Shown one piece after another: positions 1 through 6,947 of a DNA stretch of 6,976 bases. Every line of letters starts with the position of its first letter. The stretch's first letter is position 1. The notes below the pieces were generated by a model, which saw only the letters and a program-made list of their open reading frames with translations, was not told the origin of the DNA and did not search any database. The stretch is from an uncultured archaeon (GTDB taxonomy: Archaea > Iainarchaeota > Iainarchaeia > Iainarchaeales > CSSED10-239). Position numbers and translations under genes: made by a program. Location: positions 1-6,976 of the forward strand of contig CAZPGO010000016.1 in NCBI GenBank assembly GCA_964586355.1. Direction: 5' to 3'.

Positions 1-213
1 AATCAAAAATTTTTAGATTTTATAGGATTATTTGAAAACATACAAGAAGATTTTAAAAATCTATGTAATAAAATTAATATAGAGTATAAACCATTGCCAA
101 TAATTAACAGCTCTAAAAGAAAAGATTATAAAGAATATTATGACGAAGAAACGATAAATATTGTTAAGGAAACTTACAAAGAAGAAATAGAATACTTTGA
201 TTTTAAATTTTAA
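1..213 (+). CDS. Sulfotransferase (Sulfotransfer_2-like), C-terminal fragment; the gene starts upstream of the window
   Basis: Frame 1 is open from base 1 to TAA at 211-213. It is absent from the ORF track because no start codon lies in the window. Translation: NQKFLDFIGLFENIQEDFKNLCNKINIEYKPLPIINSSKRKDYKEYYDEETINIVKETYKEEIEYFDFKF. From memory, the pattern FDFIG-x-FEN-x-QEDF, then N-x-S-K, then Y-x-EYYDEET and Y-x-x-(D/E)I-x-x-F is the C-terminal signature of bacterial and viral family-2 sulfotransferases. The PAPS-binding motifs would lie upstream, outside the window. Confidence 0.65.
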   Translation, partial: NQKFLDFIGLFENIQEDFKNLCNKINIEYKPLPIINSSKRKDYKEYYDEETINIVKETYKEEIEYFDFKF

Positions 214-225
214 AAAAGAAAAAAC

Positions 226-232
226 AAGGAGG
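226..232 (+). promoter_or_regulatory. Shine-Dalgarno site (AAGGAGG) for the CDS starting at 243
   Basis: A perfect AAGGAGG lies 10 nt upstream of ATG 243, inside the 29 nt spacer after the sulfotransferase stop. Confidence 0.75.
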
Positions 233-242
233 TTTTAAAAAA

Positions 243-1001
243 ATGAAAATACTAGCTTACTATACTCATGGGTTTTCAAATGAATTTTTACCCATACTAA
301 AACTATCAATAAGAAGCTTAAGAAAGTACAACAAGATAGACACCTTAGTATTATGTGATGAGCAATTTGAAAAAGATTGTAAAGCAATGGGAGGAATAGA
401 AACTTTAAGCTTAAAAAATTCAAAAAAACCCGAGGATGCTTCAATGCACAAACTATCTGTTTTTTCTTTTGAAGAAATAAAAAATTACGATAAAGTAATT
501 TTTATAGATAGCGACATAATAATAGATGTTAAATTAAATAAAATAATAGAAAAATGTTTAGATGAACAAAAACTATACGCTTGCTCAGAATCAAACGATA
601 TCTCTTTACACAGAAATTTATATTGGTCATTAGAAAACTACACAGAAAAAGAAATGGAATTTTTTAAAAAAAATAAAATTTATGTATTTAATGCAGGGTG
701 TTTTATATTTACTCCAAATAAAGAATTTAAAACACACTTTCAAGAAATAAAAAATATTATAAAAGAACATAAAGGAAGCTACTTTTATGAACAATCATTT
801 ATGAATTTTTATTTTAATAAAAAAAACTTAGTAGACTACTCTGTTTTAAATGAAAAAAACTATATATTGCATGCAAATGGAGATAAAAAATATAGAAATT
901 CAATAGTACACTTTTGTGGAAATCCTGGGGTTGCGGCAAAAAAGTTAGAAAGAATGAAAAAATATTTAAATGAAAACAAAAATAATAAGTTTTTATGCTG
1001 A
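243..1001 (+). CDS. GT-A fold glycosyltransferase, GT8-like (retaining LPS/glycogenin-type DxD transferase)
   Basis: 252 aa ORF with a strong SD. The DxD motif is in the typical beta-strand context VIFIDSDIII (D-S-D encoded at 507-515). Downstream are FNAGCFIF (GT8-like FN-x-G-hydrophobic) and IVHFCGNPG (GT8-like H-x-x-G). No TM segment. Confidence 0.65.
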   Translation: MKILAYYTHGFSNEFLPILKLSIRSLRKYNKIDTLVLCDEQFEKDCKAMGGIETLSLKNSKKPEDASMHKLSVFSFEEIKNYDKVIFIDSDIIIDVKLNKIIEKCLDEQKLYACSESNDISLHRNLYWSLENYTEKEMEFFKKNKIYVFNAGCFIFTPNKEFKTHFQEIKNIIKEHKGSYFYEQSFMNFYFNKKNLVDYSVLNEKNYILHANGDKKYRNSIVHFCGNPGVAAKKLERMKKYLNENKNNKFLC

Positions 1002-1602
1002 CATAGAAAATAGAAACTACTATAGCCTTTGTGGGCAAAAGCTAAAAGAATCTCTTGAAAAATTTAACATAGAACACGAGGTAGAAGAAATAAATTCATC
1101 TAACGACTATATGTTAAATTGCCTAAAAAAGCCAGGATTCATACTTAAAAAAATACTTGATTGTAAAAAACCTTTAATATGGGTTGACGTGGATACAGAT
1201 TTTAGATCTCCATTTGAAGATTTTGATAAAAATGATTGTGATATAGGGTTTTGTAGTGATACAGGGGATGTAGAGGGTGTAAAGGCCTCTCCAATATATT
1301 TTAATTATAACGAGAACGCTTTGCTTTTTTTAAATAAATGGAAAGAAGAATGCGAAAAGGCCGTAATAGAAAAAAAAACAGAATTAGATCACGATGTAAT
1401 AAAATACATACTATTGCCAGAATTTAATAACAAAATAAAAATAAAAATAATAACAGAAAATTTTATAGATTTTTATAACGGAAAATACATAAAGAGTAGA
1501 TTATCAAAAAATTTTGTAACAAAAAACTTAGCACACAAAAAAATAAAAGAAATAAATAGATACAGAAAAGGCTTAAGTAAAAAAGAATATAAAAGCTTAT
1601 AA
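970..1602 (+). CDS. Small DxD nucleotide-diphospho-sugar transferase (GT-A, Nucleotid_trans-like), copy 1
   Basis: 210 aa. ATG 970 overlaps the upstream gene by 32 nt, and there is no other in-frame ATG for about 47 codons. N-terminal strand IISFYAD, then KKPGFILKKIL, then PLIWVDVDTDF (D-V-D-T-D at 1186-1200), then IYFNYNENALLFLNKW. By eye this is the same architecture as the ORF at 2919-3581. Confidence 0.5.
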   Translation: MKTKIISFYADIENRNYYSLCGQKLKESLEKFNIEHEVEEINSSNDYMLNCLKKPGFILKKILDCKKPLIWVDVDTDFRSPFEDFDKNDCDIGFCSDTGDVEGVKASPIYFNYNENALLFLNKWKEECEKAVIEKKTELDHDVIKYILLPEFNNKIKIKIITENFIDFYNGKYIKSRLSKNFVTKNLAHKKIKEINRYRKGLSKKEYKSL

Positions 1603-1608
1603 AGAGGA
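1603..1608 (+). promoter_or_regulatory. Shine-Dalgarno site (AGAGGA) for the TTG start at 1613
   Basis: The GAGG core at 1604-1607 lies 5 nt before TTG 1613-1615, in the 10 nt spacer after TAA 1600-1602. Confidence 0.55.
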
Positions 1609-1612
1609 AAAA

Positions 1613-2308
1613 TTGTTTTACGAAAAAGAAAAACAAAAAGAAATATTAACCAAAAAACTACTCAATAAGGAGTTTTTTGCATTAAATAGATTTGGAGAAG
1701 GTGAAGTAAGAGTAATAATGAGCGGAGGAACAGGAGTATACTTGAGATGTATAGCAAAGTCATCTATAAGGGAATGGGAATATAATCCAAAAGAAGACAA
1801 ATACTTATACGAACAATTATGTGAAAGCTTTTATTATAAAGAAGAAAACTACATAAAAGCATCGGTTGGTGGTGGCAAAAAAAATCAAGAAGAGTTTGTA
1901 AAAAAAAGCCTCCCAAACGAAGAGTTATTTACTACAACATATTTTTATGGAGATGACTATTACAGTGATTTTTTCGAAACATACCTTCCTTTAATGCAAA
2001 AATATGAATCTATAAACTTTGTATGCTCTAAAATAGCAAACTATAAAAATGTAAATATAAATTTTAAAAATGTCTACAATAATTTTGAAATATCAAACGC
2101 ATGGAAGCAAAAAGAAGAAACTAAAAAAGTAATAGAAGAAATAAGTAAAACAAAAAATTCTGTATATATTTTTTCTGTAGGTTTTAATTCCAAAATAATG
2201 ATTAAAAAGCTTTTCCAGGAAAACAAAAGTAATGTGTATTATGACTTTGGTGCAAATTTAGACATAAAGCTATATGGAAGAAAAACAAGAGGGAAACACA
2301 TGCTATGA
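1613..2308 (+). CDS. Putative GT-D fold glycosyltransferase (DUF1792-like); TTG start
   Basis: 231 aa. The N-terminal motif LNRFGEGEVRVI (R-F-G-E-G-E at 1688-1705) resembles the R-x-G-D-G-E metal-binding (DxE) motif near the N-terminus of DUF1792/GT-D enzymes. This motif lies upstream of the first in-frame ATG (M36), which together with the SD supports the TTG start. The stop overlaps the next start as ATGA. Confidence 0.45.
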   Translation: MFYEKEKQKEILTKKLLNKEFFALNRFGEGEVRVIMSGGTGVYLRCIAKSSIREWEYNPKEDKYLYEQLCESFYYKEENYIKASVGGGKKNQEEFVKKSLPNEELFTTTYFYGDDYYSDFFETYLPLMQKYESINFVCSKIANYKNVNINFKNVYNNFEISNAWKQKEETKKVIEEISKTKNSVYIFSVGFNSKIMIKKLFQENKSNVYYDFGANLDIKLYGRKTRGKHML

Positions 2309-2928
2309 ATATTTTTGTAGAGTATTTTAACCATAAAAATAAAAGAAGAAAAAGCGAAATAGATAAAACTCTTATTACCAACATGAATTTTAATTATATA
2401 AATAAATTTTATGTATTCTCTAATAAAGAAGATTCAGAAGAAGTTAAAAAATTAAATTTTAATAAAAAAATAACAAACGTCATAACAGAAGAAAGATGTA
2501 CCTTTCAATATGTTTTTGACTTTGCAAACTCAGTTTGTGGAGAAGAAGAAATTAACATAACAATGAATAACGATATAATATTAAGTAAATCATTTAGTAA
2601 TGTTAGAATTCCCAAAGAATGCTTTTTTGCAATAAGCAGATGGGAAAACAGCAATAGTGTGCATCCATCTTGTTATAGAACTTGTGACTCTCAGGATTTA
2701 TGGATTTGGCAAGGACACAACAAAATAAAAAATTGTGATTTCTATTTCGGATTGCTTGGATGTGATAACAGGATTGTGTATATTGCAGAAGAATGTGGAT
2801 ACATAGTTAGAAATCCAGCATATAAATATAAATGCTATCATAACCATGCATCTAAAGTGAGAATAGGATCGAGTGACGCAAGTTTAAGATTAAAAGGCCC
2901 ATATAGAAAGGTTTGTCCATGTCACTAA
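2305..2928 (+). CDS. Hypothetical protein, Cys/His-rich; possibly a divergent GT-A-like transferase
   Basis: 207 aa, with a 4 nt ATGA overlap onto the upstream stop, which suggests translational coupling. It has 11 Cys and a C-terminal C-x-H-x-H then C-x-C-H arrangement (KCYHNH, then VCPCH). Other motifs are NNDIIL (at the position where a DxD would sit), SQDLWIW and GLLGCDNRIVY. I do not recognise the family. Confidence 0.55.
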   Translation: MNIFVEYFNHKNKRRKSEIDKTLITNMNFNYINKFYVFSNKEDSEEVKKLNFNKKITNVITEERCTFQYVFDFANSVCGEEEINITMNNDIILSKSFSNVRIPKECFFAISRWENSNSVHPSCYRTCDSQDLWIWQGHNKIKNCDFYFGLLGCDNRIVYIAEECGYIVRNPAYKYKCYHNHASKVRIGSSDASLRLKGPYRKVCPCH

Positions 2929-3581
2929 ATTTGTATACATTCTACACAGAGAGCCACAAGATTTTAATGGAAAAATACTTCATGCCTAGTTTTTATGAAA
3001 CAAATAAAAACTTGAATTTAAAAATCAAAAAATTTGAGCAAAAATGTTCTTCTGGAGAATACATGTCAAATGGCTGGTATGACATAATGATAAATAAAGT
3101 TGATTATATTTTAGAAAGTATAGAAGAAACTTGGGGAGGCATTTTTATACATGCAGATTGTGACATTGTTTTTTTTGATGAAATAGAAAAAGACATAATA
3201 AAACAATTGGGCGAAAATGACTTAGCAGCCCAAAATGATGGAAATACAATATGCTGTGGTTTTTTTGCATGCAAATCTAATGAAAAAACAAAAAAATTAT
3301 TCGAAAATGTAAAGTTAATTATGAATGAAAAATTCAATGATCAACAAGCAACAAATAAATTGGCAAAAAACTACATATCCTATGACTATCTAGATCAGAA
3401 ATACTACAGTATTTACAGAAACACAAAAAGAAAAGTTTGGGAAAAAGGAATGAATATAGATGAAAAAGAAATACCAAAAAATATGATAGTTTATCACGCA
3501 AATTGGACTGTTGGTATAGATAACAAAATAGAGCTTATAAAGAGAGTTAAAAAAATAATAGATGATAATAAACAAAAATAA
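2919..3581 (+). CDS. Small DxD nucleotide-diphospho-sugar transferase (Nucleotid_trans/PF03407-like), copy 2
   Basis: The ORF track starts at TTG 2913. I prefer ATG 2919 because GAAAGG at 2906-2911 sits 7 nt upstream of it. Motifs are GGIFIHADCDIVFF (D-C-D at 3156-3164), CCGFFACKSNEKTKKLF and NDQQATNKL (D-Q then N, as in Nucleotid_trans). It overlaps the upstream gene by 10 nt. Confidence 0.6.
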   Translation: MSLNLYTFYTESHKILMEKYFMPSFYETNKNLNLKIKKFEQKCSSGEYMSNGWYDIMINKVDYILESIEETWGGIFIHADCDIVFFDEIEKDIIKQLGENDLAAQNDGNTICCGFFACKSNEKTKKLFENVKLIMNEKFNDQQATNKLAKNYISYDYLDQKYYSIYRNTKRKVWEKGMNIDEKEIPKNMIVYHANWTVGIDNKIELIKRVKKIIDDNKQK

Positions 3582-4512
3582 AATAAAAAGTGAGATAGAA
3601 GAAAAAAGATCATATATTTCAAATGACTTATGTAAAAATCCACAACAGCTATACAACGAAATAAAATTTTTAGAGGATTGCTTAAAAACAGGACAAGTAA
3701 ATGTTCCAGAAGAATTTAAACCCAAAATAAATGTAACCTATCCACCAGAAAACTATGAAATATTCGAAGAATGGGTTTCAAATAACTACACTTCAAATTT
3801 TAATAGAAAATACTTGCCTATACATTGGACAAGTTATCACGTAAACAATAAATATGGAATAATAAAATCTGTAGTTAAGAGACTGCAAGAATTTGTAGAC
3901 AATTTGCCAAGAAATCAAACATACTGGACGATATGTCAATATGATGATGGGGTTTTAATAAATTTTAAAAATTTAGATGTTTTAGTCTTTCACATGAGCA
4001 AAAAAACAGGCGTTGAAATACCACTAGTTTGTATGCCGCACTCTTACAAAACAAAAGAAAAAAAAGACATATTTGCTTCATTTATAGGAAAAGAAACACA
4101 CCCTTTAAGAAAAGAAATTTTTAATATTAAAAATCCAAAATACTACATTTCTAAACAAAATCACAACATACAGAAATATTGCGAAATATTAGACAGATCG
4201 GTGTTTGGACTTTGCCCCAGAGGATATGGACTAAACAGCTTCAGAACATCAGAATGCATGCAATATGAAACAATTCCAGTCTATATTAGCGATGAATTTA
4301 TAGGAGTATTTGATGACAATTTCGAAGAATATGGAATTAAAATAAAAGCAAAAGATGCCAACAAAATAGAAAAAATATTGAACGACATATCTCAAGAAGA
4401 AATAGAAAATAAAAGAAAAAAAATAAAAGAGTATTATAATAAATATTATGTTTATGAAGGCTTAATAAATCAAATAAATGAAAAGCTAATCAATGATAAT
4501 AAAAAAAATTGA
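3562..4512 (+). CDS. Exostosin-like glycosyltransferase (GT47 family, GT-B fold)
   Basis: 316 aa. The C-terminal block FGLCPRGYGLNSFRTSECMQYETIPVYISDEF (about 4204-4293) matches the exostosin signature: hydrophobic-C-x-x-P-x-G, then S-x-R, then E, then G-x-IPV-hydrophobic-x-D. It is preceded by FASFIGKETHPLRKEIF (F-x-G, then R). The start overlaps the upstream gene by 20 nt. Confidence 0.75.
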   Translation: MIINKNKIKSEIEEKRSYISNDLCKNPQQLYNEIKFLEDCLKTGQVNVPEEFKPKINVTYPPENYEIFEEWVSNNYTSNFNRKYLPIHWTSYHVNNKYGIIKSVVKRLQEFVDNLPRNQTYWTICQYDDGVLINFKNLDVLVFHMSKKTGVEIPLVCMPHSYKTKEKKDIFASFIGKETHPLRKEIFNIKNPKYYISKQNHNIQKYCEILDRSVFGLCPRGYGLNSFRTSECMQYETIPVYISDEFIGVFDDNFEEYGIKIKAKDANKIEKILNDISQEEIENKRKKIKEYYNKYYVYEGLINQINEKLINDNKKN

Positions 4513-5113
4513 AAACAAAGTTAAAGACCCGAGATATAAACAAATATTAGACATATTAAAAAACACTCAAAATAATTGTATTGGTGTTGAAGTTGGGGTT
4601 TTAAATGGAGATTTATCCAACTTTCTATTAGAAAACTTTTTAAAAATTAAAAAATTATATCTAATAGATCCTTGGAAAAAATATGCAAAACATGAATATG
4701 TTGATTCTATTAATGATAAGTCTCAAAAAGAATATGATCAAATTTACTTATCAGTTAAACAAAAAATGTTAAGGCATGAAAAAAAGGTAGAGATATTAAG
4801 AGGAACATCTGGCGATGTTATCGATAAATTTCATGAACAAAGCCTGGACTTTGTTTACTTAGATGGCAACCATATGTATGAAAATGTTTTTAAAGATATT
4901 TCGTTGTGGTATCCCAAAATCAAAAAAAGCGGAATACTATTTGGAAACAATTTTATGGATGATGGCTATAAAGTCTGGGTAAAAGATGCATATGGAAACC
5001 CAACTTGCTACGGAGAATATTCGGTAAAGAGTGCAGTCAGGGTGTATTGCAAACAAAACGGACTTAAGTACAGAAGTCCAGGAAACAACCAATGGTATAT
5101 TGTCAAAATTTAG
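4493..5113 (+). CDS. Class I SAM-dependent methyltransferase (Methyltransf_24/TylF-like)
   Basis: 206 aa. Motif I is IGVEVGVLNGDLS (about 4586-4609), followed by the post-I acidic LYLIDPW, then DFVYLDGNHMYENV and GILFGNNF. This pattern is typical of the small sugar/macromolecule O-methyltransferases found next to glycosyltransferases. It ends in a double stop, TAG then TAA, at 5111-5116. Confidence 0.75.
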   Translation: MIIKKIENKVKDPRYKQILDILKNTQNNCIGVEVGVLNGDLSNFLLENFLKIKKLYLIDPWKKYAKHEYVDSINDKSQKEYDQIYLSVKQKMLRHEKKVEILRGTSGDVIDKFHEQSLDFVYLDGNHMYENVFKDISLWYPKIKKSGILFGNNFMDDGYKVWVKDAYGNPTCYGEYSVKSAVRVYCKQNGLKYRSPGNNQWYIVKI

Positions 5114-5259
5114 TAATGTTTTCTCCAATCGCTTCTACTGCCTTTTTTACCCTTTCTTCTTTTGATTTTTTCTTTTTTTGTTAATATTTTTGAAGCTCTA
5201 GGACCACTATAGTGACCGATTGACTTTGAACTTTTATATCCTCACCGCCAGAAAACCCA

Positions 5260-5278
5260 GTCCCTTTAGGGGCTTTTT
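5260..5278 (+). terminator. Weak candidate intrinsic terminator for the + operon
   Basis: GTCCC-TTTA-GGGGC forms a 5 bp stem including one G-U pair, with a 4 nt loop (5260-5273). TTTTT follows at 5274-5278. On the - strand the same stem would contain a C-A mismatch, so it fits the + direction better. The stem is short and lies 147 nt past the stop codon. Confidence 0.3.
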
Positions 5279-5299
5279 CCAATCTCCATAAGATATCAT

Positions 5300-5533
5300 T
5301 TAGTCATCCAAACTCTTAAAAGAATTTAAGCTTTTATTGGGGTTCACAATTAATTGTTCAAAAAGAGTTTTGGCCTTTGCTGAATTTAATTTTTTCCAAG
5401 CTTTTTTCCTTGTGCTAAGAGTGTAATCTTTGAAGACATCTCTTATGCCGCCAACTAAATCCATAAAACAATTTATTTTGTTGGTGTTATCTTTTTTTGC
5501 TTCATTTAAACAGTATTCTTTAAAAGTTTTCAT
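5300..5533 (-). CDS. Hypothetical small Lys-rich protein (77 aa)
   Basis: This ORF lies 15 nt downstream of the LamG gene on the same strand. I found no recognisable SD and no recognised domain. The sequence looks helical and basic (MKTFKEYCLNEAKK...). Coding status is moderately likely given the overall gene density. Confidence 0.45.
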   Translation of the reverse strand: MKTFKEYCLNEAKKDNTNKINCFMDLVGGIRDVFKDYTLSTRKKAWKKLNSAKAKTLFEQLIVNPNKSLNSFKSLDD

Positions 5534-5548
5534 AAAATTATATACGTA

Positions 5549-6241
5549 TTATAATCTAAATCTGTATTTAGTGGCATTGAAGTTTTGATTAATTTCTTGC
5601 ACAGTAAGTGGTCTGTTGTATACTTTAAAGTTAGTAATTTGAGAAGATCCAGTGTCGGCCGAACCAAATGACCCATTAAAAAAATATGCCCCTATATAAA
5701 AATCGCCCGTCATGGATACTGATGTGTCGGCTGTTTTAGTTATAGTTTCCGTTGAATTAATATATAGCTTTGCAGTTCCACTAGCAATATTTAGACATAG
5801 ATGAGTCCAAGATAAGGAAACACTTGCCCTTGTACCAGTAAATCCGCCACCCCAAAAATAACTTCCAAATCCAGCATCCCAAAAACCATCGTAATTTCCT
5901 GCATAAAGCCTATTATCCGTAGGGCTTTGTATTCCAAAATATACTTTTCGTTCATTAATAGAATTGGGTCTTATCCACACATCAACTGCTGCTGATACGG
6001 TTGGTCCAGGAAAATATGTAGAAACAGTACCAATGTTGATATAATCATCAACTCCATCAAAATGAAAACACCCTTTCCCATCCGACCAATAAGCCGCCCC
6101 ATTAATCGCAGCATCGTTCTGATTGCCGGATAAGTCATACAGAGTGTTGCCACTACCAGGATAGCTTTTACTGATAATAGGATCTAGCATTAATACCAAT
6201 CCATCTGTAACTATTTTTGGTGGGCCGTTTTGGTAACTCAT
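5549..6241 (-). CDS. LamG / concanavalin-A-like lectin-fold protein (Laminin_G_3-type), single domain, paralog B
   Basis: 230 aa. The N-terminal hallmark is TDGLVLMLDP-x-KSYPGSGNTLYDLSGNQNDA. Further motifs are FHFDGVDDYINIG and W-T-H-L, and the C-terminal hallmark is ITNFKVYNRPLTVQEINQNF. There is no signal peptide. The start lies 1 nt after the stop of paralog A. Confidence 0.8.
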   Translation of the reverse strand: MSYQNGPPKIVTDGLVLMLDPIISKSYPGSGNTLYDLSGNQNDAAINGAAYWSDGKGCFHFDGVDDYINIGTVSTYFPGPTVSAAVDVWIRPNSINERKVYFGIQSPTDNRLYAGNYDGFWDAGFGSYFWGGGFTGTRASVSLSWTHLCLNIASGTAKLYINSTETITKTADTSVSMTGDFYIGAYFFNGSFGSADTGSSQITNFKVYNRPLTVQEINQNFNATKYRFRL

Positions 6242-6242
6242 T

Positions 6243-6947
6243 TTATATATGCCTTATTTGAAGTGCTTTGTAATTTTGTAATATTTCACTATCTGTTAGT
6301 GACCTATTGTAGATGCTAAAATTTGATATACCTCCTACAAACAAACCATCTGGCCAACCTGTAGTACCGGCCCTGCCCAAACCTAGTAAATTATAAGCAG
6401 CATTATTTGTATTTGCAGACACATAAGAACCAGAAGAGTGTAATATTCCATTTCTGTAAGTTTTAATATATCCTTCATCATAATTTGCCACAGCAGCTAA
6501 ATGCAGCCAATTGTTTTCGTCTGGAGGTCCTATAGAAACACTTGAAGTGTTGGGGGGTCCACTATTATCAAATTGGTCAAACACCCAATTTCCTGCCCAT
6601 ATACGAAATCCTAGTCTTTCCCAACTGCTGCTACCAAAACCTATTCTTGGCATATTTTCATTACCTGTGGCAACTCCTTTGACCCAAGCACACCAAGTAA
6701 AATTAGTATCAGTAAAAGAATTGAATAAATATGGAATTGTAGCATAACTATTACTTGTGCCATCAAAAGACATATATTTAGCGTTATTATTTGTCTCGAA
6801 AGATGCCCCGCTTAATAATGTTGCATTATTATTGCCAACCAAATCATACCAAGTTGAACCACTACCAGGGTAGCTTTTAAGATTTCCAGCATCTAAGTAT
6901 ATTTCAAGACCACCTGTTGTTATTCTTGGTCCATATCCAGTTGTCAT
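6243..6947 (-). CDS. LamG / concanavalin-A-like lectin-fold protein (Laminin_G_3-type), single domain, paralog A
   Basis: 234 aa. The N-terminal hallmark is TGGLEIYLDAGNLKSYPGSGSTWYDLVGNNNATL. Further motifs are MSFDGTSNSYATIP and NWLHLAAV, and the C-terminal hallmark is ISNFSIYNRSLTDSEILQNY. There is no signal peptide. An SD sits upstream at 6956-6961. Confidence 0.8.
   Translation of the reverse strand: MTTGYGPRITTGGLEIYLDAGNLKSYPGSGSTWYDLVGNNNATLLSGASFETNNNAKYMSFDGTSNSYATIPYLFNSFTDTNFTWCAWVKGVATGNENMPRIGFGSSSWERLGFRIWAGNWVFDQFDNSGPPNTSSVSIGPPDENNWLHLAAVANYDEGYIKTYRNGILHSSGSYVSANTNNAAYNLLGLGRAGTTGWPDGLFVGGISNFSIYNRSLTDSEILQNYKALQIRHI

Follow-up and report, generated by a model that had tools for sequence, protein, structure and literature searches.

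The stretch of DNA analysed here (the window; 6,976 nt, positions 1 to 6,976 of contig CAZPGO010000016.1 in GenBank assembly GCA_964586355.1, assigned to an uncultured archaeon) contains in its first 5113 bases a tightly packed series of genes for predicted glycosyltransferases (GT) and glycan-tailoring enzymes. Eight open reading frames (ORFs), all on the + strand, fill 99.2% of window 1–5113. They make up most of a nine- to ten-gene island that also includes a GT2 gene upstream of the window and the start of the sulfotransferase gene. This island encodes, in unbroken succession, seven distinct, soluble proteins resembling Leloir-type GT and two tailoring enzymes, and it is very probably a phage island for glycan synthesis and tailoring. 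The features of the island within the window are as follows.

1–213, + strand: ORF0, the C-terminal 70 aa of a sulfotransferase cut by the window edge (PF03567 Sulfotransfer_2)
226–232, + strand: Shine-Dalgarno (SD)-like AAGGAGG, 10 nt 5' of the ORF1 ATG (direct reading)
243–1001, + strand: ORF1, GT8 (GT-A), 252 aa, DSD motif in VIFIDSDII (PF01501)
970–1602, + strand: ORF2, divergent Nucleotid_trans-like (GT-A), 210 aa, DVD motif in WVDVDTD (homologues match PF03407)
1613–2308, + strand: ORF3, predicted GT-D-like fold, 231 aa, TTG start, RFGEGE loop (AlphaFold2 model)
2305–2928, + strand: ORF4, predicted GT-A/nucleoside diphosphate (NDP)-sugar-transferase fold, 207 aa, NND, GCDN and HNH motifs (AlphaFold2 model)
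2919–3581, + strand: ORF5, Nucleotid_trans (GT-A), 220 aa (222 aa from TTG 2913), DCD motif (PF03407)
3562–4512, + strand: ORF6, exostosin/GT47-like (GT-B), 316 aa (PF03016)
4493–5113, + strand: ORF7, class I S-adenosylmethionine (SAM) methyltransferase (Methyltransf_24, TylF-like), 206 aa (PF13578)

Organization of the island

When the coordinates were recomputed, the eight ORFs and all seven of their junctions were exactly as described in the original prediction. ORF0 and ORF1 are separated by a 29-nt spacer that includes the AAGGAGG, ORF1 and ORF2 overlap by 32 nt, and a 10-nt spacer (agaggaaaaa) precedes TTG 1613, the start of ORF3. ORF3 and ORF4 share a 4-nt ATGA overlap, ORF4 and ORF5 overlap by 10 nt (16 nt if TTG 2913 is the start), and the ORF5/ORF6 and ORF6/ORF7 overlaps are 20 nt each. 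SD-like motifs were found 5' of ORF1, ORF3, ORF4 and ORF5, and none was found before ORF2, ORF6 or ORF7, which start 20–32 nt inside the upstream gene. The starts of ORF2 and ORF3, the latter a TTG, are backed by N-termini that are conserved among the homologues. The ORFs may be translationally coupled.

The DNA of the window is approximately 26% G+C, giving a stop probability of 0.097 per codon from base composition and a probability of about 1e-9 for 200 open codons. The longest real frame has 316 codons. As the longest open frame in 200 shuffles averaged 66 codons and reached a maximum of 122, the frames of 200–316 codons are not due to chance. No transmembrane helix was found in the eight proteins, the top Kyte-Doolittle mean over 19 residues being 1.07 against a threshold of 1.6, and the earlier view that all of the products are soluble therefore holds. 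Promoter and terminator consensus scans of the window gave no more matches than in shuffled sequence, and no tRNA genes or Rfam families were found in it.

The original prediction treated these eight genes as the complete cassette, which is too small a unit. In the source contig (stretch L005), the start codons of the sulfotransferase gene and the divergent GT2 gene are only 18 bp apart (L005:9353–9372), so that one promoter or more has to be located within the adjacent gene. The GT2 gene travels with the island among its relatives and belongs to it.

Protein families encoded in the island

Of the eight original assignments to a family or fold, seven survived testing with hidden Markov models (HMMs) or structures. 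Pfam matches above the cut-off were obtained for the GT8 protein, ORF5, the GT47-like protein, the methyltransferase and, using the full-length protein, the sulfotransferase. The ORF0 fragment fell just below the PF03567 cut-off of 22 (E 2.2e-4, 21.9 bits) and matched phrog_3347 (E 5e-13), while the full-length sulfotransferase (L005:9372–9971, 199 aa) matched PF03567 with an E value of 8.5e-14 (52.7 bits). This protein includes the sequences PKTAGFS and RNTWDRLLS, which resemble the 5'-phosphosulfate-binding (5'-PSB) and 3'-phosphate-binding (3'-PB) motifs for 3'-phosphoadenosine-5'-phosphosulfate (PAPS). ORF1 matched positions 53–245 of the 253 in the PF01501 profile (E 1.8e-8, 34.7 bits, cut-off 24.3), with its DSD motif within FIDSDII, and its best solved relative was the GT8 domain of WbbM (E 0.0028).

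ORF2 itself has no Pfam match. PF03407 was matched by five of the 12 members of its family (39–97% identical; best E 2.9e-6) and D73 and D75 are invariant among the homologues, in keeping with the earlier call of a GT-A protein with a DxD motif. ORF5 matched PF03407, a GT77-type GT-A family, directly (E 1e-10, 42.4 bits, cut-off 22), with DCD in HADCDIV. ORF2 and ORF5 are not recent paralogues, and the GT-like proteins of the island are therefore all different.

The match of ORF6 to PF03016 (E 1e-12, 48.5 bits, cut-off 33.4) covered only the C-terminal half (149–292 of 293). Its best solved relative was Exostosin-2 (EXT2; E 0.0013) and the chlorovirus protein A075L was not matched in the search of Protein Data Bank (PDB) sequences. 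On these matches, ORF6 is best described as exostosin/GT47-like, with the CAZy families GT47 and GT114 (A075L type) both candidates. ORF7 matched PF13578 (E 1.1e-13, 52.4 bits, cut-off 26.3) and phrog_2675 (E 3e-17), and its match to TylF (E 0.01, 15.5 bits) was below the cut-off of 23; it is predicted to act in sugar O-methylation. Searches of PDB sequences with family profiles of ORF2, ORF3 and ORF4 gave nothing significant, single-sequence PDB searches with ORF5, ORF7 and the sulfotransferase were uninformative, and NCBIfam contained nothing useful for the window proteins.

A GT-D-like fold in ORF3

ORF3 was originally called GT-D-like, and this was upheld for the predicted fold and not for membership of an HMM family. 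The AlphaFold2 model of ORF3 has a predicted local distance difference test (pLDDT) score of 88.2 and a predicted template modelling (pTM) score of 0.89. When it was compared with the PDB, the DUF1792 structures 4phr, 4pfx and 5v4a were the top three matches and the only ones with E≤1e-3; the template modelling (TM) scores were moderate (0.50–0.55) with a probability of 1.00, and the related GT-E enzymes TagA/TarA were next. The HMM matches were weak, namely WecG (2e-3), the GT-D-like family PF22882 (E 0.04, 13.7 bits, cut-off 27) and GT-D_rel NF040628 (E 0.09, 12.4 bits, cut-off 75). None of the cut-offs of the GT-D families (DUF1792 PF08759, NF040628 and PF22882) was reached, and a profile built from 10 homologues found no DUF1792 chain among the PDB sequences. 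GT-D enzymes have an Asp-X-Glu motif that coordinates Mn2+; in ORF3 the sequence R26-F-G-E29-G-E31 after the first strand is invariant and contains E-x-E, a putative counterpart of D-x-E. The model supports ORF3 as GT-D-like at the level of fold, and the island thus brings together GT-A, GT-B and GT-D-like folds within about 4.5 kb, as first proposed.

The closest viral structural matches to ORF3 were Mimiviridae proteins (TM-scores 0.73–0.76), with ORF3-like folds fused to methyltransferase or GT2 domains in Homavirus and Moumouvirus. A tblastn search with ORF3 found no match in cultured phages. A scan of 185,579 GTDB species representatives recovered a single relative with 21% identity, the method being pattern-based so that absence is weak evidence. 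This relative, from Methylacidiphilum sp. Yel (L040:6511–7257), adjoins a GT2-like gene, and an ORF with 11 transmembrane-like segments is found approximately 4 kb away, as in a cellular polysaccharide locus.

ORF4 represents a large GT-A-like family

The protein originally described as a Cys-rich orphan, ORF4, proved to be neither. None of its cysteines is invariant and most vary among homologues, and an exhaustive profile search recovered 3,736 cluster representatives at E≤1e-3 for a family that has no Pfam model. The AlphaFold2 model (pLDDT 85.5) had 61 PDB matches at E≤1e-3 in Foldseek, and all 50 of the 50 listed were NDP-sugar transferases or nucleotidyltransferases. RmlA, the GT2 mannosyltransferase PcManGT, SunS and chondroitin synthase were amongst them (E approximately 1e-5, TM-scores 0.50–0.57). 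An invariant N88-x-D90 is found after strand 4, at the position expected for a DxD motif. In many of the family members recovered, the ORF4-like domain is fused to GT2, GT1-like or methyltransferase domains, or to GT47 plus Nucleotid_trans domains. The modelled fold is of the GT-A/NDP-sugar-transferase type and would fit either a transferase or a nucleotidyltransferase, with the fusions favouring a GT.

An HNH...R motif and the Cys content had suggested that ORF4 might be a zinc-binding/HNH-type protein or a TET-like dioxygenase. This was rejected on the variable cysteines, the lack of an upstream HxD and the GT-A-like fold.

Conservation and exchange in related phages

The island was found in two further contexts with 72–100% protein identity across the three conserved copies. 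One is a 135.8-kb IMG/VR contig (IMGVR_UViG_3300036770_008686, here represented by stretches L009 and L019) and the other is L042. Both L009 and L042 retain the order GT2, sulfotransferase, GT8, ORF2, ORF3, ORF4, ORF5 and GT47, followed by methyltransferase genes. There is one such gene at the 3' end of the island in the window and three in L009 (12235–13990) and L042 (13521–15284), the trio encoding a 168 aa Methyltransf_24 protein, a methyltransferase-like protein of about 200 aa and a 207 aa Methyltransf_24 protein. In L015, the backbone genes are shared up to a 245-aa gene and the island content is then replaced at the same left-hand junction by genes for a sulfotransferase, an FMN_red protein, ORF2, ORF3, two GT2 proteins and an FkbM methyltransferase.

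The copies in L005 and L009 share a block of about 3.8 kb (L005:8700–12400) with 94–99% nucleotide identity, while the flanks are 72–80% identical. It starts in the N-terminal half of the GT2 protein, takes in the sulfotransferase, GT8, ORF2 and ORF3, and ends in the N-terminal half of ORF4 (around window 2500). This pattern of identity indicates that recombination took place recently inside the island and that one of the breakpoints is in ORF4.

Parts of the island were also found elsewhere. The ORF2-ORF3-ORF4 trio recurs with its order unchanged adjacent to gp32 and gp33 on a T4-like contig (L016/L017), and another T4-like contig has ORF2-like genes within a large cluster that also contains genes for DegT, a PglD-like protein and an epimerase. 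In the 735-kb uncultured phage LR756501.1 (L043:9929–13297), two Methyltransf_24-like genes come before a single 1122-aa ORF in which GT47-like, ORF5-like and ORF4-like domains are joined, and the same three domains are fused in a 1039-aa metagenomic protein (P0037). At least these three activities should therefore belong to one pathway. In an unrelated phage (L012:8841–11175, L041:7052–9386), ORF4-like and ORF5-like genes directly follow a C5 DNA methylase gene, an order which hints that the pair might act on DNA. Genes for SSB, DnaB and RNase H are nearby, and neither a TET nor a thymidylate-synthase gene was seen in the vicinity. Homologues in cultured phages are scattered, and include relatives of ORF4 (35% identity) and of the GT47-like ORF6 (31% identity) in S-SKS1 and of the sulfotransferase in phiRSL1 and DLP_6.

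Flanking genes and viral context

Over bases 1–6235, the window and a JGI metagenome contig are identical. The window also has 99.8% identity to a 32.9-kb contig. Upstream of the island, the source contig carries the divergent GT2 gene, then the 245-aa gene and genes for a small winged helix-turn-helix protein, an rIIA homologue (734 aa, phrog_612, E 3e-83) and a PcfJ/rIIB-like protein. The 135.8-kb contig has the same arrangement, with an rIIA protein that is 82% identical. The suspicion of a viral origin was therefore well founded, given the rIIA match and the presence of the island in an IMG/VR contig. The source is a large, uncultured tailed phage carrying rIIA/rIIB-like genes, for which the description 'T4-like' is not established. 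Its lineage is new, as the closest cultured rIIA is just 25% identical. A near-identity DNA search with the whole window found no match in 50,697 phage records. An origin in a giant virus was considered and rejected, as the rIIA and other PHROG matches, the SD motifs and the IMG/VR phage contig argue otherwise.

Downstream of the island are convergent genes, beginning with a conserved 77-aa gene and three to four tandem LamG genes, then a TnpB gene and a gene for an FkbM-type methyltransferase. The features found in this part of the window are as follows.

5251–5279, no strand assigned: small G+C-rich hairpin separating the two convergent sets of genes, its flanks rich in U and A (minimum free energy and centroid fold of 5105–5305)
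5549–6241 and 6243–6947, − strand: two tandem LamG-domain genes (Laminin_G_3, E 1e-13 and 9e-17)

The hairpin might possibly act as a bidirectional terminator; it was not called by the terminator consensus scan, and the fold z-score of region 5105–5305 (0.70) is like that of shuffles. The two LamG proteins in the window are 31% identical to each other and match phrog_8510 (E 4e-16 and 1e-12), which carries the tentative label 'virion structural protein'. There are four LamG copies in L002 (L002:2591–5770). The paralogues share an N-terminal 'SYPGSG..YDL.GN' and match the C-terminal parts of large PHROGs labelled as virion structural proteins, and the number and size of these genes vary between related phages. 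The LamG proteins are candidates for virion surface proteins rather than established members of the glycan pathway. The TnpB-type gene (OrfB_IS605 plus Cas12f1-like_TNB, 366 aa; L002:7779–8879) is about 2 kb past the LamG block, and the FkbM (Methyltransf_21) gene is in L002:9963–10547. In the 135.8-kb relative, GT25 and FkbM (Methyltransf_21) genes are found beyond the LamG block (L019:5837–7336), which is therefore flanked by glycan-related genes on both sides. The PHROG label '2OG-Fe(II) oxygenase' on one of these genes was set aside, as the product is a GT25 protein by Pfam.

The stretch of the 135.8-kb relative that was covered spans 63.5–110.3 kb (about 47 kb). PHROG and Pfam scans included most, though not all, of its ORFs of ≥120 aa, and precomputed Pfam matches were available for L005 and L009. 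GroES-like, sigma factor, dCMP deaminase-like, peptidase and endonuclease matches were found in this stretch, with no sign of a capsid, portal or terminase gene. ORFs of ≥60 aa with four or more transmembrane-like windows were absent from every frame of the 47 kb and of the source contigs. The window had been said to lack Wzx/Wzy, ABC exporter, priming-transferase and nucleotide-sugar synthesis genes, and this was confirmed. The first three were also missing from the precomputed Pfam matches of L001, L002, L005 and L009, and nucleotide-sugar synthesis genes from the flanking genes scanned, and the DNA recovered contains no standard O-antigen or capsule locus beside the island. Among the genes scanned between roughly 20 kb on the upstream side of the island and roughly 15 kb on its downstream side, there was no match to a thymidylate-synthase, TET/5mYOX, dCTPase or nucleotide kinase gene, and no integrase was seen in the regions examined.

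Possible functions of the island

Our preferred reading, held tentatively, is that this phage island could build a short hetero-oligosaccharide, sulfated and methylated, on a phage protein that is finally displayed at the surface of the virion. The enzymes would act in the host cytoplasm during infection, using UDP- and GDP-sugars, PAPS and SAM of the host as donors. The glycan would be built sugar by sugar, kept short, and then O-sulfated and O-methylated. The acceptor would be a phage protein, probably a virion protein, such that a variable island would set a variable virion 'glycotype'. A scheme of this kind would parallel the cytoplasmic O-glycosylation of serine-rich repeat (SRR) adhesins and the glycosylation of chlorovirus and mimivirus capsids or fibrils.

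A protein acceptor is favoured because the sole characterised GT-D enzymes extend O-glycans on a protein, Fap1, and because the viral proteins closest to ORF3 in structure are from Mimiviridae. It is also favoured because the capsid protein of PBCV-1 is glycosylated by A075L, a soluble cytosolic enzyme that used to carry an exostosin annotation, and because glycosylation of virions is known in mycobacteriophages. Lastly, the island adjoins the tandem LamG genes with their 'virion structural protein' PHROG matches, and the GT25 and FkbM genes lie across these genes in the 135.8-kb relative. The more specific proposal, that sulfated and methylated glycans are placed on the phage's own virion proteins such as the adjacent LamG proteins, with 'glycotypes' exchangeable within the lineage, is doubtful.

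Several observations weigh against a virion protein as the acceptor. The adjacency of the LamG genes is circumstantial, and the island lies outside any structural module, as no gene for a capsid, portal or terminase was seen in the 47 kb. WbbM, the best solved relative of the GT8 protein, is an O-antigen polymerase of which the matched part is a domain, GT25 is a lipopolysaccharide (LPS) family, and the literature on cyanomyovirus GT clusters assumes targets in the host envelope. A pair of genes like ORF4 and ORF5 adjoins a C5 DNA methylase in another phage, and GT8-like enzymes can extend glycans that are linked to DNA. The folds of ORF3 and ORF4 come from predicted models with TM-scores of just 0.50–0.57, and for all of the island proteins the activity, donor, linkage and acceptor are predictions only.

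Remodelling of the host envelope is the strongest of the alternatives, though we consider it unlikely. The soluble GT would work on an undecaprenyl-(pyro)phosphate-linked intermediate at the cytoplasmic face of the membrane, and a host primer and exporter would complete the process. The target would be O-antigen, capsule, a teichoic-acid-like polymer or lipooligosaccharide core, with methyl and sulfate groups as terminating or masking caps, and the altered cell surface might block superinfection or keep progeny from sticking to debris. The resemblance of ORF1 to the O-antigen GT8 domain and the GT2 and GT25 genes nearby would fit, as would the bigger clusters of T4-like relatives, whose DegT, PglD-like and epimerase genes are typical of surface polysaccharide. 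So would the distant cellular homologue of ORF3 beside its GT2 gene and 11-transmembrane ORF, the cyanomyovirus literature, which reads such clusters in this way, and the fact that many O-antigen GT are peripheral proteins that lack transmembrane helices. However, no priming transferase, flippase, polymerase, ligase or transporter was found in the 47 kb, and the scheme therefore hinges wholly on compatible host machinery. The phage also appears to be lytic (rII genes and no integrase seen), leaving little time for turnover of the surface, and the mixture of GT-D, GT47-like and Nucleotid_trans proteins is better documented in viral cytosolic protein glycosylation and in SRR protein systems.

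It is improbable that the product is free or secreted (an oligosaccharide, glycolipid or small-molecule glycoside) or that the island is largely passive 'moron' cargo that does not form a single pathway. No acceptor has been identified, the island is mosaic and its content is swapped between close relatives, all of which would agree with such a role. Against this, the order of nine to ten genes is kept in three phages at the protein identities given above, and the fusion of three of the domains elsewhere argues for one pathway under selection.

Hypermodification of DNA, in which an oligosaccharide on a hydroxylated pyrimidine (5-hydroxymethylcytosine, 5-hydroxycytosine or 5-hydroxymethyluracil) would protect against restriction, like the mono- to tri-saccharides of the TET/ThyS phage clusters or the poly-arabinosylated cytosines of RB69/DLP3, is very unlikely. 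Glycosylation of DNA by GT-A and GT-B enzymes of phages is known, with GT8-like 'second-sugar' enzymes among them, glycan chains are found on Straboviridae DNA, the ORF4-like and ORF5-like pair comes after a C5 DNA methylase in a replication module of unrelated phage contigs and the related phage encodes a dCMP deaminase-like protein, but such pathways are usually clustered and no base-hydroxylating gene was detected among the ORFs scanned near the island (about 20 kb upstream to 15 kb downstream), the known DNA GT are JGT/TarP-like GT-A or BGT-like GT-B enzymes and not GT-D, GT47 or Nucleotid_trans proteins, and seven different GT plus sulfation far exceed any known DNA glycan.

With nine or ten small soluble enzymes, the island is a compact test case that could reveal whether phages sulfate glycans and whether virions, host envelopes or DNA are decorated. 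As it has no sugar-activation genes, it should run on the metabolites of Escherichia coli. Natural variants are available for comparison, namely three conserved copies, one that has been replaced, one recently exchanged block and the three-domain fusions. If the more specific proposal, sulfated and methylated glycans on the phage's own virion proteins, were correct, it would provide the first example of a sulfated glycan from the virion of a tailed phage and would give a function to the viral GT-D-like family and to the GT-A-like family of ORF4 (>3,700 cluster representatives).

Comparison with known systems

The original prediction implied that a cluster of this kind was unusual. However, multi-GT clusters in large phages are already published, as 'cell-wall synthesis and modification' clusters are described in the available parts of the reports on the T4-like cyanomyoviruses S-SCSM2R (up to 13 GT), S-SCSM1 and P-SSM2 and on Synechococcus phage S-SKS1. 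These phages are large, lytic and aquatic, as the present phage appears to be, with clusters of numerous GT genes from several families and no demonstrated target. Their clusters differ in content, which as described there includes nucleotide-sugar epimerases, Kds, Rml, GT1, GT10, GT11 and GT25. The same parts report no GT-D-like protein, and the term 'sulfotransferase' is absent from the S-SCSM2R paper. In contrast, the island described here is compact and co-directional, and no sugar-activation gene was found with it.

In the O-glycosylation of the SRR proteins Fap1 and PsrP, a series of soluble cytoplasmic GT, including a GT-D enzyme (DUF1792/dGT1) and GT-A enzymes, likewise extends a glycan stepwise on a protein. 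The island differs from these systems in its phage context and in lacking a GtfA/B-type initiating pair, an SRR substrate and accessory Sec genes. ORF3 differs from DUF1792 in falling below all of the GT-D HMM thresholds and in its putative metal-binding motif, E-x-E and not D-x-E.

Giant viruses also use soluble cytosolic GT and methyltransferases and do so independently of the endoplasmic reticulum, Golgi or export. Examples are A064R, A075L and A111/114R of PBCV-1 and the fibril clusters of Mimiviridae, and A075L, like ORF6, was annotated as exostosin (PF03016). Their hosts are eukaryotic, however, and in the PDB ORF6 matches EXT2 and not A075L. Giant viruses usually also encode sugar-nucleotide synthesis.

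For tailed phages, the sole known experimental precedent for the mechanism favoured here is that of mycobacteriophages Che8, Corndog and Myrna (Freeman et al. 2023), in which the phage's own GT modify capsid and tail-tube proteins. GT clusters are common in large aquatic phages, and a proven target is known only for the mycobacteriophages and for the phages that glucosylate or arabinosylate DNA. The mycobacteriophages reportedly have few GT genes, located by structural genes. The phage DNA-glycan clusters (associated with C5-methyltransferase/5mYOX or ThyS, and in RB69 and DLP3) are similar in encoding several soluble GT, including GT8-like second-sugar enzymes, that use host nucleotide sugars. 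They differ from the island in their GT families and in the base-hydroxylating enzyme, which was not found near it, and no sulfation is known for DNA glycans.

Multi-GT islands in large aquatic phages and the soluble glycosylation machineries of giant viruses are therefore already known. Particular to the island described here are a phage GT-D-like protein, a sulfotransferase within the block, a huge unannotated GT-A-like family, the lack of sugar-activation genes and the clear signs of module exchange.

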